DNA of 64,000 nt, from positions 3,966 to 67,965 of the forward strand of contig JAGXIU010000003.1 in NCBI GenBank assembly GCA_024635455.1, in the 5' to 3' direction. This DNA comes from Candidatus Saccharimonadota bacterium (GTDB lineage Bacteria > Patescibacteriota > Saccharimonadia > Saccharimonadales > SLHW01). Shown here one piece after another: positions 21,064-48,908 of this stretch; positions within the stretch are counted from its first letter, which is position 1, and each line of letters begins with the position of its first letter. Both the position numbers and the translations under genes were made by a program. A model generated the notes under the pieces. The model searched no databases. It saw only the letters and a program-made list of their open reading frames with translations, and was not told the origin of the DNA.

Positions 21064-22329
21064 ATGAAAGAAGACAAAAACCTAGATGTATTTCCGGACC
21101 AGTTCTTTTGGGGAGCAAGTACTGCCAGTCATCAAGTTGAAGGCGGCAATGCAAACCAGTGGTCTGCATGGGAGCTTGAGTATGCCAAAGAGTTAGCTCA
21201 AACAGCACATACTCGCTTATCATATTTGCCAAACTGGAATGATATAAAGCAGCAAGCACAAGACCCAGATAACTACGTATCAGGTAAAGGTATTGAGCAC
21301 TATAGGCGTTTTGAGGAAGACTTTGAATTACTAGATCAGTTGAACATGAATTCTTTTCGCTTTGGTGTCGAATGGTCACGTTTAGAGCCCGAGGAAGGCA
21401 AGTGGAATAGTGAAGCCTTCGCTCATTATAAGCGTTATATCGCCCAGCTACGTAAGCGAGGCATTGAGCCATTCTTGAACATTTGGCATTGGACAGTACC
21501 GGTCTGGTTCGCAGAAAAAGGCGGGTTTGAGAAGCGAGCTAACCTTATTTACTTTGATAGGTTTGTGCAGAAGCTAACTGAAGAGTTGCTGGAGGACGTA
21601 ACTTATGTCATAACCCTTAATGAGCCAAACGTCTACGCTAGTTTTAGCTACTTAACTGGGGAGTGGCCGCCGCAAAAAAAGAACCCAATAATGTTCATGA
21701 AGGTATACTGGAACTTAACGAGGGCTCATCGCAGAGCATATCGGATATTAAAAAAGGCTAAACCGAGCTTACAAATTGGGCTGGCGGCACAACTAGCTAA
21801 CATGCAGGCGAAGCGACCTCACAGTGTTTTGGACGGCGTATCAACAAAATGGATGCGTTATTTCTGGAACTGGTGGTTTTTGAACCGAGTGCGTCGGTAC
21901 CAGGACTTCGTAGGTTTTAACTATTACTTTACTGATTACTTCACAGGGCTTATGAAACGAAGTAACCCAGATGTACCCGTAAGCGACCTAGGCTGGTATA
22001 TGGAGCCAGAGGGTTTGTATCCAATTTTGCTGCGGTTATGGTCGCATTATAAAAAGCCAATTTTTGTAACCGAAAATGGCGTCGCAGACAAAGATGATCA
22101 ATACCGCCGCTGGTGGATTGAGGAGACAATTGTTGCTATGGAAAGAGCAATCAGTGAAGGGGTCGATATTCGCGGCTATTTCTATTGGAGCTTGCTTGAT
22201 AATTTTGAGTGGAAATACGGTTGGTGGCCGAAGTTCGGGCTCGTGGCAGTCGACCGTGAGCATGATATGAAGCGGACGATACGACCAAGTGCGAAATGGT
22301 TCGCCGAGAAGATAAAGAATATATCCTAG
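21064..22329 (+). CDS. Glycoside hydrolase family 1 beta-glucosidase
   Basis: FPDQFFWGASTASHQVEGG, acid/base TLNEPN, nucleophile VTENG, YFYWSLLDNFEW. Confidence 0.9.
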   Translation: MKEDKNLDVFPDQFFWGASTASHQVEGGNANQWSAWELEYAKELAQTAHTRLSYLPNWNDIKQQAQDPDNYVSGKGIEHYRRFEEDFELLDQLNMNSFRFGVEWSRLEPEEGKWNSEAFAHYKRYIAQLRKRGIEPFLNIWHWTVPVWFAEKGGFEKRANLIYFDRFVQKLTEELLEDVTYVITLNEPNVYASFSYLTGEWPPQKKNPIMFMKVYWNLTRAHRRAYRILKKAKPSLQIGLAAQLANMQAKRPHSVLDGVSTKWMRYFWNWWFLNRVRRYQDFVGFNYYFTDYFTGLMKRSNPDVPVSDLGWYMEPEGLYPILLRLWSHYKKPIFVTENGVADKDDQYRRWWIEETIVAMERAISEGVDIRGYFYWSLLDNFEWKYGWWPKFGLVAVDREHDMKRTIRPSAKWFAEKIKNIS

Positions 22330-31637: not shown

Positions 31638-32736
31638 CTTGAAGCAACAGTCTCCTCGCGCACATATAACCTATGTAGGGGAGCGAAAGGGACGTTTTGC
31701 ACATGTGCTTGCAGGCAATAAAGATATTGATAAGACCTATAGCATTTTCTCTGGGAAGTATCGACGTTATCACGGCGAGACATTGCTGCAAAAAATGATC
31801 GATATTAAGACCATTGTATTAAATATTCGGGATGTTTTTTTCGTTGCTATAGGGGTTGTCCAGTCGCTCGTTTTGCTTGCATTGAATCGACCTGACGTTG
31901 TGTTTCTAAAGGGGGGTTATGTTGGCGTTCCAATCGGATTGGCAGCAGCGTTATATCGCATTCCAATTGTAACCCATGACTCTGATGCAGTTGCTGGCTT
32001 AGCTAACAGAATGGTGAGCCGTTGGGCAACCTTGCACGCAACTGCTTTGCCCGTCAACCAATACGCTTATCCAGAGAGTAAGACACTCGAAACAGGTGTT
32101 ATCGTTAGCAGTGAATATCGTCTTGTAGATAGCGATGCAAAGCAGGCTTTTCGTCGCGAATTGGCGTTACCACAAAATGCAAAAATATTATTTATCACCG
32201 GTGGTAGCAGCGGCGCGGCAGCTATAAACCAAACAGTCACCAGCATTATAGAAGATATTATTGACCTTGATCCTGATGTATATATTATCCACCAAGTAGG
32301 GAAGGGGAAGCAGGGGGTGTATAAGAGGACTGACTATAGGCAGCTTGAAGTCCATGAGTTTATTGACGGTTTATATAAGTATAGCGGTGCGGCAGATTTA
32401 ATTATCACGAGGGCAGGGGCAAATACACTGGCGGAGTTTGCTGTGCAGGCAAAGCCTTGCATCGTTATACCGAGCCCGCACTTTGCAGGTGGTCATCAAT
32501 TGGAAAATGCAAATTTTGTGCGTGAGCGCGAGGCTGCAGTTGTTTTAGATGAGCAGACAATATTGCAAGATCCGTCGCTGCTAAATCAATCAATCGCGAA
32601 CGTACTTCTTGATAAAAGAGCCCAGAAAAAACTAGCCGACAACATACATAAACTCGCTCGTCTGGACGCTAGTAGTGTCATTGCTCAAAAACTGCAGGAC
32701 ATAGCTACAAAAAGTAAAAAACACAACAAACTATAA
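31570..32736 (+). CDS. murG: UDP-N-acetylglucosamine--N-acetylmuramyl-(pentapeptide) pyrophosphoryl-undecaprenol GlcNAc transferase
   Basis: GTG start. KILLSGGGTGGHITP and the C-terminal GANTLAE...PSPHFAGGHQLENA motif. Overlaps the basic tail of ftsW by 68 nt. Confidence 0.9.
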   Translation: MKILLSGGGTGGHITPIRSIAHDLKQQSPRAHITYVGERKGRFAHVLAGNKDIDKTYSIFSGKYRRYHGETLLQKMIDIKTIVLNIRDVFFVAIGVVQSLVLLALNRPDVVFLKGGYVGVPIGLAAALYRIPIVTHDSDAVAGLANRMVSRWATLHATALPVNQYAYPESKTLETGVIVSSEYRLVDSDAKQAFRRELALPQNAKILFITGGSSGAAAINQTVTSIIEDIIDLDPDVYIIHQVGKGKQGVYKRTDYRQLEVHEFIDGLYKYSGAADLIITRAGANTLAEFAVQAKPCIVIPSPHFAGGHQLENANFVREREAAVVLDEQTILQDPSLLNQSIANVLLDKRAQKKLADNIHKLARLDASSVIAQKLQDIATKSKKHNKL

Positions 32737-38191: not shown

Positions 38192-39055
38192 TTATCGAAG
38201 TGCCCAATGATCAGCCCCAAGTGGCTTAATCTTGTCAGAAATCTCGAGCATGGTCATGGTTTGCGCGTATTCCTTGGTAGGTAGTTTGCTTTGTTCAAGC
38301 AGCGTCTTGCCGTCACTCACTCCTTCTTGTAGGAGGCTGATGATACGAGACTCTGCCTCTGTTTCGCCTAGAATGATTTGTTGCTGTTGAGCCTGTTCAC
38401 TGATGTTGCATTCATCGAGTATATCCTGAGCGCTCCGGGCTGCTCGTGCTCCTTGGGCTATAAGGTTATTTGTACCCTGACTCATTTGATTGGTGATATT
38501 TCCTGGCACTGCAAGTAGTGGCTTGCCTTGATCAAGGGCAAACCGAGCAGTATGTAGCGTGCCACTTTTCTTGGCAGCCTCAGTTATTAATACAGCGTCA
38601 CTTAAGCCTGATACGATACGGTTACGTTCAACAAAGTTCTGGCGTAGGGGTGGAGTACCTGGTTCATATTCGCTAACAAGTGCCCCACCGGCTGCAATAA
38701 TATCCTTTGCTATATTTCGATGGGCTGCCGGGTAGATTTTATCGAGACCACATGGCAGGACTGCTATCGTGGGCATTCCTTCGGCCAGTGCGGTTTTGTG
38801 AGCAGTGATATCGACCCCGAAGGCCAGGCCACTTACAACGGAGATGTCATATGCCGCTAGATCTGAAATAAATTTTTGTGTCACTTCCCTGCCGTAAGGC
38901 GTGATTTTGCGTGAACCAACCACTGCTACCATTGTTTTTGCTGACAACGCTTCAGGAGATCCTCGGACGTACAGTTGCTTCGGAGGTTGTGGAATATGAC
39001 GCAGCACCCCTGGAAAATCGTTTGATTGTAGCGTAAGCTTATTGACTTTATGCAT
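38192..39055 (-). CDS. dprA: DNA processing protein DprA (Smf)
   Basis: VVGSRKITPYG, SGLAFGVDITAHKTAL, GTLHTARFALDQGKPLLAVPG. Confidence 0.9.
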   Translation of the reverse strand: MHKVNKLTLQSNDFPGVLRHIPQPPKQLYVRGSPEALSAKTMVAVVGSRKITPYGREVTQKFISDLAAYDISVVSGLAFGVDITAHKTALAEGMPTIAVLPCGLDKIYPAAHRNIAKDIIAAGGALVSEYEPGTPPLRQNFVERNRIVSGLSDAVLITEAAKKSGTLHTARFALDQGKPLLAVPGNITNQMSQGTNNLIAQGARAARSAQDILDECNISEQAQQQQIILGETEAESRIISLLQEGVSDGKTLLEQSKLPTKEYAQTMTMLEISDKIKPLGADHWALR

Positions 39056-39072: not shown

Positions 39073-39101
39073 TTGACATATAACGTTTTATTTGCTAAAG
39101 T
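39073..39101 (+). promoter_or_regulatory. Sigma-70-type promoter candidate driving a non-coding transcript
   Basis: TTGACA (39073-39078), 17-nt spacer, TAAAGT (39096-39101). There is no plus-strand ORF downstream. Confidence 0.4.
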
Positions 39102-39107
39102 ATGTTC

Positions 39108-39563
39108 TTGTAAACGCCGTAAAGGTGATTTACGCACCTTATATCCCCCATTCTAGCAATTATGTTGCTAGAAAACATTGTTAGATTGTTTTAGAGCACG
39201 CCTGCAAACGTCATAATACGTCTTACCCTCCACGTGTATGAATATGCATGCATTCTGTCGAGCGTTTTTGCTCAATACAATACATGCTCTAAAACAAACT
39301 AACCCCTTTAACGCCCCAGCTCTTTTTATAAGGAGTCGGGTGCCAGGAGTCTTTGAGAGACGACCGGCCCAAACAAAATGGTGAATATACAGTATTCCGT
39401 CGTTTACGTGCGGAGGCGCGGGCGATGAGTAAATCTATCGCAATCCGACGCTTCACCGGGGTGGGTTGAAGGGAATGTGCGAGGCATTGGCGTTTTAATA
39501 ACGTTCAATGCCTCATGAAACGAGCTTCTAGCGGTGCCCACCCCCTCTAGAAGCTCGTTTTTT
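39108..39563 (+). ncRNA. Candidate ~455-nt structured ncRNA of unknown class
   Basis: Bounded by the promoter candidate and a strong terminator. No ORF of 60 aa or more on either strand. Hairpins at 39122-39140, 39153-39171 and 39481-39514. 11-bp long-range pairing between 39188-39198 and 39285-39295. Confidence 0.35.
39519..39563 (+). terminator. Rho-independent terminator (strong on the plus strand, may also serve pth on the minus strand)
   Basis: 13-bp stem AACGAGCTTCTAG/CTAGAAGCTCGTT followed by TTTTTTGTTT. Lies directly beside the pth stop codon. Confidence 0.7.
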
Positions 39564-39565
39564 GT

Positions 39566-40204
39566 TTAGAGAATATTACGCGTTTCTTTTGGTAGCGGCG
39601 ATCCGCTGAAGATGTACTCAGTTAGGATTGCTGTGGTCTCTTTTATTATACTGGGTAATACTTCTTGCTCGTCTTTACTGAATCGGCTAAGTACAAAACG
39701 CGAAGTGTCTTCTACTAGCTCTTCCCTGCCGATGCCAACCCGAACCCTGCCAAATTCTGAACCGATAGCATCAATAATAGACGTAACGCCGTTGTGTCCG
39801 GCCGACGATCCACCGACTTGTGTTCGTATTTGCCCAAGTTGTACATCCTTATCGTCGTATATAACGATAATGTTGCTGGGTGATATTTTATAAAATTGAG
39901 CTACCGAGGCTGTGGCATCGCCGCTCTTGTTCATATAAGTCGTTGGCTTGATTAGAATAATCTGGTTATTTGCGAGCTGCTGGTTAGCTATATCAGAACG
40001 CTGGTCACTCTTATGGCTCCATTTTGGAAAGTCGTGCTCAATTGCAAATGCGTCAACGCAGCTAAAACCAATATTGTGCCGCGTCCCGTCGTATTTTTTT
40101 TCTGGGTTGCCAAGCCCAATTACTAGAAATCGGTTATCGCCGATACCAGTTGTATAAAGCGGGAGGCTGCTACTTAGTTGGGGTTTCTTTTGCAGTAAGG
40201 CCAT
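39566..40204 (-). CDS. pth: Peptidyl-tRNA hydrolase
   Basis: VIGLGNPEKKYDGTRHNIGF and the GHNG motif (SAGHNGVTSI). Confidence 0.9.
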   Translation of the reverse strand: MALLQKKPQLSSSLPLYTTGIGDNRFLVIGLGNPEKKYDGTRHNIGFSCVDAFAIEHDFPKWSHKSDQRSDIANQQLANNQIILIKPTTYMNKSGDATASVAQFYKISPSNIIVIYDDKDVQLGQIRTQVGGSSAGHNGVTSIIDAIGSEFGRVRVGIGREELVEDTSRFVLSRFSKDEQEVLPSIIKETTAILTEYIFSGSPLPKETRNIL

Positions 40205-47350: not shown

Positions 47351-48895
47351 CTATCTCCGATACATTGAGTGGTTTTTTACCCAGCCATGTGACTGTCGAA
47401 TAATCTCTTTATTTCCAGTTTCTTGTAACTCTTTATCGAGTTGAGCATATGGTACCACACTGAAGCCGAAGGTACTGCCCTCCCCTTCCTTCGAATTGAC
47501 CCAAACTTGTCCACCGTGTGCGGAAATGATTGCTTTGGTCAAATAAAGCCCTAAACCAGTGCCGCTGATTTTATTACGAGTCCGGTGGTTTCGATAAAAT
47601 TTCTCAAATAAATTAGTAGTTACACTGCTTGGCATACCGACACCGAAATCTTGAACAGTTGTATGTATAAGACCGTTACTGCCAACTTTTGAAGTGACGA
47701 TAATCTTCTTGGAGTCACCACGATACTTAATGGCATTATCGATAAGGTTGGCTATTACTTCATAAATACTAACTCGGTCTATTCCAACTGACGGAATATT
47801 ATCGTCAATATGTCGCTCGAGCGTTATATCGTAAATATCTGTGCGAATCTGTATGTCGTCCAGCATGGCTTTCAGTGCTTTATTCCAATCAGCCTCTTGG
47901 AGCTGCATCATGAGCTGGTTTTGTTCGATGCGAGCAACGTTGAGGATATTGTTGACAAATATTGTAAGCTGCCCAGCTGCAACCTCCATTTTGTGCATAA
48001 AGTCCTGGAGCTCTTCGCTTAAGTTCTCACCCAGTTCGTCTTCAAATACTTCAATGTAGCCTCGCAACATAGTAACTGGAGTACGTAATTCGTGCACTGC
48101 CATGGCAACAAAGTTAAGCGAATCGTCGTCTTGCTGGTAATGCTCGGTTCGGTCGAACATGGTGATAATAAAATCCGCGCCGCTCGGATTGTCACGGTTA
48201 TATTGCGCGCTTAGGTCACATTGCTTTTCTGATTGGTCTGGTAGCGTGACACGAACTCGTTCCCAGAAGCCGGTAGTTGTGACCTTGTTCTTCTGGCACT
48301 CCTCCATCCATTGATTCAACGTATGCTCACTCGGGAAAGTAAGCCGTACTGCATCTTCTAGGGTTTGGCCAAAGAGCTTCGAGGTTTCTGTGTCAACGTA
48401 CGTAATAGCTGATTCACTGGCGTTGGTGATAATTCTCTGAGTATTGAGTACAAACATAGGTAGCGGTAAGTGATTGACGATATTGATAGCCTGTATGAGC
48501 TCTTTTCGGTGAGACGTAGTGTCCGCTGTCTGCGAGGAGCCATAGCTTGCCAATTGGTATACCTGCATAGCCATATTATTAATAAGTTCTTTGCCCGTAC
48601 GGATTGCTTCAAGGTTTGGTGGACTTGAGGCGCTATGCTCGTGCCCTGGCGCAACATGCATGATTGCCTGTACTAGCGTATTAAGAGGCTCAAGAACTGC
48701 CTTGAGTACGAATTCGCTCAAGATGAGCGAAAACCCTATTACGGATACAAAGCAAATAATTATCGCCAGAAGTGAATCGACCGCAAAGACCTCAAACAGC
48801 ATGTACCATGCAACTATCGAAAAAATTCCAACGAGAATCAGGGCGCTCGCGATATAGGTATAGACTTGTGCTCGTAACCGTTTGGAATGATCCAT
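47351..48895 (-). CDS. Sensor histidine kinase
   Basis: Two N-terminal TM helices, H-box FVAMAVHELRTPVTMLRGY, N box NLIDNAIKY, G boxes DFGVGM and GTGLGL. Confidence 0.85.
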   Translation of the reverse strand: MDHSKRLRAQVYTYIASALILVGIFSIVAWYMLFEVFAVDSLLAIIICFVSVIGFSLILSEFVLKAVLEPLNTLVQAIMHVAPGHEHSASSPPNLEAIRTGKELINNMAMQVYQLASYGSSQTADTTSHRKELIQAINIVNHLPLPMFVLNTQRIITNASESAITYVDTETSKLFGQTLEDAVRLTFPSEHTLNQWMEECQKNKVTTTGFWERVRVTLPDQSEKQCDLSAQYNRDNPSGADFIITMFDRTEHYQQDDDSLNFVAMAVHELRTPVTMLRGYIEVFEDELGENLSEELQDFMHKMEVAAGQLTIFVNNILNVARIEQNQLMMQLQEADWNKALKAMLDDIQIRTDIYDITLERHIDDNIPSVGIDRVSIYEVIANLIDNAIKYRGDSKKIIVTSKVGSNGLIHTTVQDFGVGMPSSVTTNLFEKFYRNHRTRNKISGTGLGLYLTKAIISAHGGQVWVNSKEGEGSTFGFSVVPYAQLDKELQETGNKEIIRQSHGWVKNHSMYRR

Positions 48896-48908
48896 GCCCG
48901 CCCCCTTA

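Follow-up and report, generated by a model that had tools for sequence, protein, structure and literature searches.

The window analysed here is a stretch of 64,000 nucleotides (nt) from contig JAGXIU010000003.1 of a Candidatus Saccharimonadota bacterium (GenBank assembly GCA_024635455.1). On its minus strand lie the genes dprA (38192-39055; Pfam DNA_processg_A, E = 1e-76) and pth (39566-40204; Pept_tRNA_hydro, E = 4e-58), and their coordinates leave an intergenic gap of 510 bp. Within this gap, positions 39073-39563 of the plus strand form a self-contained promoter-to-terminator unit. A sequence-only reading by a model had described this unit as the gene of a structured non-coding RNA (ncRNA) matching no known family, and had placed it in a bacterium of the candidate phyla radiation (CPR); the host is a Saccharibacterium, as that reading implied. 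Herein, we describe comparative evidence that supports the ncRNA. With a probability of about 0.9, positions 39108-39563 (+) encode a trans-acting, highly structured ncRNA, the founding example of a Saccharibacteria-wide family.

The promoter-to-terminator unit and its conservation

The sequence-only reading had relied on the 510-bp gap, a near-consensus promoter, a far-end terminator and the lack of an open reading frame (ORF) of 60 amino acids (aa) or more, and all four held up. The promoter, TTGACA-17-TAAAGT, scored 10/12 and was the joint best promoter match in a 3-kb scan. Among 92 relatives, which had been preselected with a loose promoter regular expression, TTGACA is exact in 84, the TGn extended -10 element is found in all 92 and the 17-nt spacer in 91. 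An inverted repeat, TTGCTAnnnTAGCAA, lies across the extended -10 element and the discriminator in 68 of the 92 family members and is not present in the window; it may be an operator, or a mere by-product of the promoter consensus. At the other end of the unit, a stem of 12-14 bp with a run of six T residues (T6) has the form of an intrinsic terminator, and this stem covaries in 91 relatives. The hairpin reaches right up to the stop codon of pth (39566-68). From these signals, the promoter is probably active and the transcript probably stops at the terminator.

The longest ORFs in the gap have 48 aa on the plus strand and 55 aa on the minus strand. A minus-strand ORF of at least 60 aa exists in 24/92 relatives; no ORF is conserved across the relatives, the conserved blocks have stops in all frames and the variable regions are rich in insertions and deletions. 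The plus strand folds with -179.5 kcal/mol (z = -9.8), a value reached by none of 100 shuffled sequences, and the minus strand has a z of -7.2.

Next, we compared the locus with its relatives. The Pth protein was searched against one genome per species. The closest loci were in five Saccharibacteria/Saccharimonadales metagenome-assembled genomes (MAGs), with 70% and about 50% identity. With nhmmer, each of these five loci matched the region (E of 1e-105 to 4e-9), and the match was invariably on the strand that does not encode pth; the remaining 75 pth loci, for which 3 kb on each side was covered, had no match. Against one of the five (L001), the intergenic DNA was 85% identical, while the flanking Pth protein was 70% identical. 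The six-way alignment consists of invariant blocks separated by segments of variable length. A metagenome collection was then searched with a degenerate 24-nt pattern taken from one conserved block. This pattern occurred in at least 120 stretches, and the whole suite of motifs, in the correct order, was present in at least 102 metagenome loci. These were reduced to 92 representatives of 314-635 nt that are less than 92% identical to each other. One contig, L170, is palindromic and probably chimeric, and carries the region twice in inverted orientation.

The RNA lies in a nearly fixed gene order, flanked by sigma/HARE-HTH, topA and dprA at one end and by pth, der and rluB at the opposite end. 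The leftward sigma/topA/dprA genes precede the rightward RNA, and the leftward pth/der/rluB genes follow it, at the same place in the five reference MAGs. This order is kept although the flanking proteins share no more than 45-55% identity with their counterparts in the window. Across Saccharibacteria, the sequence of the RNA is thus conserved together with its structure and its synteny.

Fold and covariation

The structure was scored in two ways, by anchor-based pair counts and by counting pairs on a MAFFT alignment (A2), and the results agreed. Over the whole structure, 86.1% of the cells were paired, compared with 78.3% in shuffles; 449 cells had changed on both sides, compared with 150 in shuffles; and the covariation score was 0.232, compared with 0.094. 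None of the 500 shuffles reached the observed values. When the 3' partners were slid by 1-3 columns as a control, at most 52% of the cells were paired. The helices contain 178 G·U and 23 A·C combinations, which identifies the plus strand as the RNA. The locus therefore shows what is generally seen in structured ncRNAs, namely compensatory changes on one strand and no conserved ORF. Conservation and covariation in relatives, on which the sequence-only reading had staked its claim, are both present, and the compensatory change is far above that in shuffles.

The architecture comprises ~10 helices, in which invariant sequence blocks alternate with variable hairpins (Table 1). P3, P6, P7, H1 and the terminator stem covary. 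In P3, U:A is replaced by A:U in 16 sequences, and the inner pairs vary between G:C, A:U and G:U; the helix possibly extends to 39180-87/39296-303. P6 is 100% canonical in 91-92 sequences, with C:G changed to G:C in nine and to U:A in one, and U·G changed to U:A in nine. One strand of P3 and one of P6 fall within the search pattern; the partner strands, which carry the compensating changes, fall outside it. P7 alternates between GCGAG/UUCGC and GUGAG/UUCAC across the relatives and U·G occurs, while the C·A combination was found in none of the motif-matched rows. In the terminator stem, 12/12 pairs covary.

Table 1. Positions of the dprA-pth RNA and its parts in the window
Feature	Position	Strand	Remarks
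Promoter	39073-39101	+	-35 TTGACA at 39073-78, 17-nt spacer ending in TGc, -10 TAAAGT at 39096-101
Predicted primary ncRNA transcript, ~456 nt	39108-39563	+	Bounded by the promoter and terminator positions
H1, 5' hairpin (GUAAACGCC / GGUG-A-UUUAC)	39110-39133	+	Sequence varies, pairs kept; 6/6 outer pairs changed on both sides
J1/2, conserved C-rich strand (GCACCUUAUAUCCCCCAU)	39134-39151	+	GCACC complementary to GGUGC of the terminal loop
P2 hairpin (UCUAGCAA/UUGCUAGA in the window, 39152-72)	39152-39185	+	97.8% of cells paired in A2
P3 helix (39188-98/39285-95)	39188-39295	+	98% paired; closes the domain with P4 and P5
P4 hairpin, loop 39222-31 (CUUACCCUCC)	39212-39240	+	Loop with invariant UACCCUCCAC; inner 4 pairs 91-98% canonical, some compensatory changes
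P6 long-range helix, CCCUUUAAC (39304-12) with GUUGAAGGG (39465-73)	39304-39473	+	Encloses the variable E domain
P7 helix, GUGAA (39381-85) with UUCAC (39452-56)	39381-39456	+	Inside the E domain; covariation
G-run GGGGUGGG	39458-39465	+	Complement of CCCACCCC in the terminal loop; proposed pseudoknot
F hairpin, optional (GAGGCAUUG/CAAUGCCUC)	39481-39514	+	Compensatory version GAGGUAUUG/CAAUACCUC in L001
Terminal hairpin and T-run	39518-39563	+	Stem 39518-31/39547-60, 15-nt loop 39532-46 (C-GGUGCCCACCCCC-U), T6 at 39558-63

Most of the helices named in the sequence-only reading fit this fold. CTAGCAA/TTGCTAG is P2, and the long-range pairing GTTTTAGAGCA/TGCTCTAAAAC is P3, where it covaries. 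The ~85-nt domain that it had drawn inside this pairing stands, and additionally holds a hairpin with an invariant CCCUCC loop. Its hairpin GAGGCATTG/CAATGCCTC is also present, with compensatory changes in L001, and is an optional element. The helix AAGGTG/CACCTT is the one that has to give way: it can be drawn in the sequence of the window, but it is specific to the lineage, with its 5' arm in only 2/91 relatives. The comparative data place H1 there instead and leave GCACCUU free.

The free strand J1/2 has the invariant unpaired element GCACCUU(A/U)UA(Y)CCCC. GCACC is found in 55/91 relatives and GUACC in 35/91; this C/U difference stands opposite G and is compatible with pairing. Two other partners proposed for this strand, UUAUA with UGUAAU and the C-run with the G-run, were rejected as they showed no correlated variation. 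P2 in the family has the form UCUAAC/GUUAGA with a variable insertion, and the inserts are hairpins of 0 to about 200 nt. The P4-loop motif UACCCUCCAC, which is outside the search pattern, is found in 91/91 relatives. The F segment is longer than 20 nt in 58/91 relatives, and 58/58 inserts of more than 35 nt fold stably.

In P3, the strand GUUUUAGAGC occurs at 39188-39197 and 39286-39295, and equals the first 10 nt of the S. pyogenes-type (type II) CRISPR repeat. A link to CRISPR was considered and rejected: no array or cas genes were noted in the window, where the one other near-match (one mismatch, 32682-32692) is at chance level. The resemblance is probably a coincidence.

The terminal loop and its phage counterparts

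The loop of the terminal hairpin is a conserved element that goes beyond what the sequence-only reading had described. It is identical in 88/91 relatives (GGUGCCCACCCCCUC; the 13-nt core is GGUGCCCACCCCC), and this invariance exceeds the needs of an ordinary terminator. The loop segment CCCACCCC forms a duplex with the G-run of -20.3 kcal/mol in the window; the mean in 91 relatives is -16.5, compared with about -8.8 in controls. The G-run itself varies (GGGG/AAGG/ACGG-UGGG). An invariant loop whose proposed partner varies indicates a constraint beyond an internal pseudoknot. The loop also has GGUGC, complementary to GCACC of J1/2, and the sole variation there is C/U opposite G. Together, the G-run and GCACC would cover the whole 13-nt loop. 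The loop is a candidate recognition element for a conserved partner. A partial second copy of it, (G)GUGCCCA(C/G)..., is found 5-70 nt past the T-run in at least 11/89 loci (L002, L095, L083, L085, L098, L108, L117, L131, L150, L178 and L183), and sometimes runs into a recurrent element, GGUGCCCAGYCRCC...GGCGRCCCC...; this copy may represent a duplication of the att type or a further small RNA.

The exact 17-mer of the terminal loop was searched in a viral collection, and gave 54 matches in 53 viral contigs, many of them of phage-genome size. The raw count was rejected as evidence after a shuffled control 17-mer gave 42. Only the hairpin context discriminates. An inverted repeat of at least 5 bp flanks 49/54 of the viral 17-mers (median 9 bp), with variable stems; for the shuffled 17-mer, a hairpin context was found in 2/42, and the contigs it matched had a G+C content of 62%, compared with 45%. 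The hairpin-bearing contigs are genuine phages, with genes for portal, major head protein, endolysin and methyltransferase, and their G+C content agrees with that of the presumed hosts. The whole RNA is present in only one of the 53 contigs (L245); elsewhere, the 17-mer forms the loop of an isolated hairpin. L245, which is labelled viral, has the full RNA and, on the other strand and upstream of a gene of dprA size, one more hairpin with this loop.

Stand-alone hairpins with the exact loop GCGGUGCCCACCCCCUC are found in about 50 phage contigs (L201-L253; e.g. L203:2332, L208, L217:5112, L222/L223 and L246). They are located between a portal or small gene and the scaffold/head (capsid) genes, after endolysin/lysis or methyltransferase genes, and within tRNA arrays. 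About a quarter directly follow a -10-like hexamer, and only 6-10 of the about 50 copies have a T-run; copies in these two settings may be expressed as small RNAs. Many copies are inside operons, which suggests the use of a host factor and not a decoy role alone. No local complement to the loop was found near the phage hairpins. The possibility that they are attP sites was rejected since no integrase is adjacent, the neighbours being portal, scaffold, head, endolysin and methyltransferase genes. Phages are known to mimic host RNA modules, for example with the solitary CRISPR repeats termed RNA anti-CRISPRs. The hairpins resemble these in being a short stand-alone phage copy of a module of a host RNA, here a hairpin with an identical loop; they differ in that the RNA of the host is no CRISPR RNA, and belongs to the core genome rather than a defence island.

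A 17-mer of the P4 loop was matched at 19 further viral loci (18 contigs), none with other motifs of the RNA. Most of these belong to one phage family with a G+C content of 0.34-0.37 (L254-L270) and are antisense to the start region of a tail-fibre-like gene (~1200 aa), where AAGUGGAGGGUAACAACU-AUG is complementary to the P4 loop and stem without a mismatch over 17 nt. The P4 loop was rejected as a second phage module: these antisense matches come from a single family with a differing G+C content and without the terminal-loop motif, and the matches are probably due to chance.

Interpretation and alternative explanations

We propose the following account. The RNA would be driven by its own near-consensus extended -10 promoter and ended by its intrinsic terminator. 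The 5' half would consist of H1, the C-rich joining strand, P2 and the P3-closed domain, which displays the invariant CCCUCC loop, and the 3' half of the P6-closed domain with P7 and variable hairpins. The two halves would be tied together by a tertiary lock, in which the loop GGUGCCCACCCCC pairs with the G-run just before the 3' strand of P6 and with GCACC of the 5' strand. The RNA may be a subunit or scaffold of a housekeeping ribonucleoprotein (RNP), or a "hub" RNA, with the terminal-hairpin loop as its recognition module; the loop would either be bound by a conserved host factor or dock on a bipartite receptor of the RNA itself, and phages would put the same loop on their own transcripts in order to use or jam the same partner. 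This functional part, an RNP or hub RNA recognised through a terminal loop that phages copy, is tentative, and we hold it at less than even odds. The account as a whole, of a structured ncRNA family and a loop-recognised housekeeping RNP or hub, is the best explanation available and somewhat more probable than not. In an unlikely variant, GCACC and the G-run would form a 12-13-nt bipartite receptor for GGUGCCCACCCCC, which the RNA's own hairpin fills at rest and where the phage loops dock in trans. Such docking would exploit the RNP (for processing, stabilisation or translation of late genes or tRNA arrays) or disable it.

Several points weigh against this account. The transcription start (~39108) and the 3' end are predicted positions, placed from sequence signals alone. 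The tertiary pairings of the terminal loop are beyond the reach of covariation because the loop is invariant, and the G-run is degenerate in two relatives (L101 and L134). The partner protein or target that the loop may bind is postulated. The raw count of viral 17-mers is not above that of the shuffled control (53 vs 42), and the G+C content and contig L245 are the sole basis that points to Saccharibacteria as the hosts of the phages. Finally, we rate the RNA as a new class as set apart by the Rfam models and by motifs at the loci, not by a comparison with the canonical rnpB, ssrA and ffs genes in whole Saccharibacteria genomes.

According to the main rival, the RNA acts as a global regulator by base pairing, in the manner of RNAIII or RsaE/RoxS: the invariant C-rich strands would pair with G-rich, Shine-Dalgarno (SD)-like sites in mRNAs and control their translation. 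The CCCUCC loop, the CACCUU...CCCCC strand and the CCCACCCCC loop are invariant and lie in loops or joining strands, two of them resemble an anti-SD sequence, and the gene has its own promoter and terminator, as small RNAs do. The known regulators likewise display several unpaired C-rich motifs (CCCUCC, CCCCC and CCCACCCCC here) on a stable scaffold. There is also a strong complement: AGGGGGCGGGC (48896-48906, minus strand), which covers the SD and the start codon of a histidine kinase gene (47351-48895), matches the reverse complement of the loop at 10/11 positions, with a duplex of -28 kcal/mol. We judged this match to be due to chance, since an equally good site is found inside the gene at 21064-22329. 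When the three elements were tested with RNAduplex against the 56 start regions of the 64 kb, 4-5 fell below the 5th percentile of the background while 2.8 were expected, so such sites are not enriched. Furthermore, most genes in the window have no SD, and in many a TAnnnT hexamer precedes the start codon at a distance of 5-12 nt (e.g. upstream of 10235, 40232, 43887, 48909 and 57871), which suggests that leaderless mRNAs, or mRNAs with very short leaders, are widespread there. An architecture of ~10 helices that is invariant across the phylum is far beyond the needs of a pairing small RNA, CCCACCCC of the loop can pair with a conserved partner within the RNA itself, and the new RNA has no homology to RNAIII or RsaE/RoxS and is far more deeply conserved. 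A regulator of this type is unlikely, although it deserves more weight than any of the explanations that follow.

A strongly diverged RNase P RNA, transfer-messenger RNA (tmRNA), signal recognition particle (SRP) RNA or 6S RNA that the Rfam models miss in CPR bacteria is improbable. In its favour, the fixed synteny, the strong promoter and the length of 314-635 nt are housekeeping-like traits, and RNase P was weighed since the RNase P RNAs of CPR bacteria are documented as divergent, with scores below the Rfam thresholds (PMC8172020). The order of P6, E1 and P7 also loosely recalls that of P2, P3 and P4 in RNase P, with a GGU in the loop. The sequence-only reading had found no signature of these four RNAs by eye, and the searches bear this out. 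At the gathering score, Rfam 15 matched only tRNAs in the window and 10 large loci (137 kb). At E<=10, for the window region and the minimal member of 314 nt (L134), and at E<=1, for 20 other members, only chance hairpin matches were obtained, among them 23S-methyl, sau-19 and miRNAs. ARAGORN, permuted forms included, detected no tmRNA, and the alignment has no T-loop motif, T-arm, CCA end or conserved ORF. For RNase P, there was no RF00010/11 match, no 5'/3' closing stem (P1), and no P4 motif in the family consensus (GGAAAGUCC / ACAnAAnnCGGCUUA; ACAnAA..GGCUUA), such motifs being found only at scattered positions in the loci. The RNase P-like reading of P6/E1/P7 was rejected, as covariation sets P7 in a register unlike that of P4 and only ~65 nt lie between its strands. 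Moreover, RF00010 was still able to detect the CPR RNase P RNAs of Lui et al. (PMC8172020). SRP RNA is opposed by the lack of a helix-8 GNAR/AGCA hairpin in the conserved blocks and of any Rfam SRP match, and 6S RNA by the lack of an Rfam match and by the form of the new RNA, which has unpaired ends, several domains over 314-635 nt and a proposed pseudoknot, where 6S RNA is one extended hairpin of about 180-200 nt with a central bubble and paired ends. Even more improbable is a cis element, that is, a riboswitch or leader of a plus-strand gene, a read-through antisense to pth-der or a control element of the divergent dprA. The core is rich in pseudoknots, highly conserved and aptamer-like, and is followed by a terminator; the RNA is convergent with pth; and many relatives have a plus-strand gene 35-300 nt past the RNA. 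However, no such gene exists in the window and at many other loci, and the downstream proteins translated from 10 relatives are mutually unrelated (membrane protein, MMPL-like, hypotheticals). Thus the RNA is neither a leader nor a cis-acting regulator of an adjacent gene; the sequence-only reading, which had excluded a riboswitch or leader from the missing downstream gene in the window, is upheld on this broader ground, the followers in relatives lying beyond the terminator. No alternative anti-terminator pairing is conserved, and the 12-bp terminator stem is always intact, usually with a T-run after it. Scarcely tenable, lastly, is the possibility that the structure belongs to the minus strand (the pth 3' or dprA 5' untranslated region) or that the gap hides a small protein gene. 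The minus strand folds well too and has the ORFs noted above in some relatives, but the excess of G·U over A·C, the conserved promoter and T-run on the plus strand, and the stops, indels and lack of conservation of the ORFs speak against both.

In several respects the RNA is like OLE, GOLLD, ROOL and the raiA motif RNA: it is large, with an intricate fold, invariant junctions and loops and variable peripheral hairpins, forms its own transcription unit, came to light through comparative analysis and is an orphan as to biochemical function. In contrast to these, it gave no Rfam 15 match to any of them, has so far been seen only in Saccharibacteria, occupies one fixed site of the core genome, where several of the others are in variable or prophage contexts, and has a terminal loop shared with phages. 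It shares with RNase P RNA (RF00010/RF00011) a similar size, a housekeeping-type gene, long-range helices, a pseudoknot (proposed here) and, in a loop, a GGU able in principle to base-pair with an ACC 3' end. It differs in having no S-domain, no P4 consensus, no P1 helix between the 5' and 3' ends and no covariance model match, and its P7 is not in the P4 register. No description of the present RNA was found in the full-text literature, subscription literature lying outside that scope. According to a preprint on the TM7x transcriptome (2022), no small RNAs are currently validated in that organism, and the main text of a paper on Patescibacteria genetics does not mention non-coding RNAs (PMC10633639).

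Saccharibacteria live as ultrasmall epibionts, and their genomes measure 0.7-1 Mb. An RNA of ~400 nt that the phylum keeps at a single locus, and in which about 70 nucleotides never vary, probably has a central role, one that current models of CPR biology lack. Large RNA classes are seldom discovered, and such discoveries have time and again opened up new biochemistry. The loop copies in phages offer an immediate experimental handle, and the receptor variant, if true, would mean that Saccharibacteria and their phages share a novel code of RNA-RNA recognition. For genetic work, strains that are both in culture and naturally transformable are available (PMC10633639).

The 3' flank of the gene varies in content. 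Plus-strand cargo genes (membrane protein, MMPL-like transporter and hypotheticals) are inserted between the terminator and pth at L003, L083, L095, L108, L122, L127, L146, L164, L180 and other loci, and not in the window. The region just 3' of the RNA gene has the look of a hot spot for insertions, like those at tRNA and tmRNA genes. For Saccharibacteria genomics, the family offers a marker gene together with a probable hot spot of island insertion.

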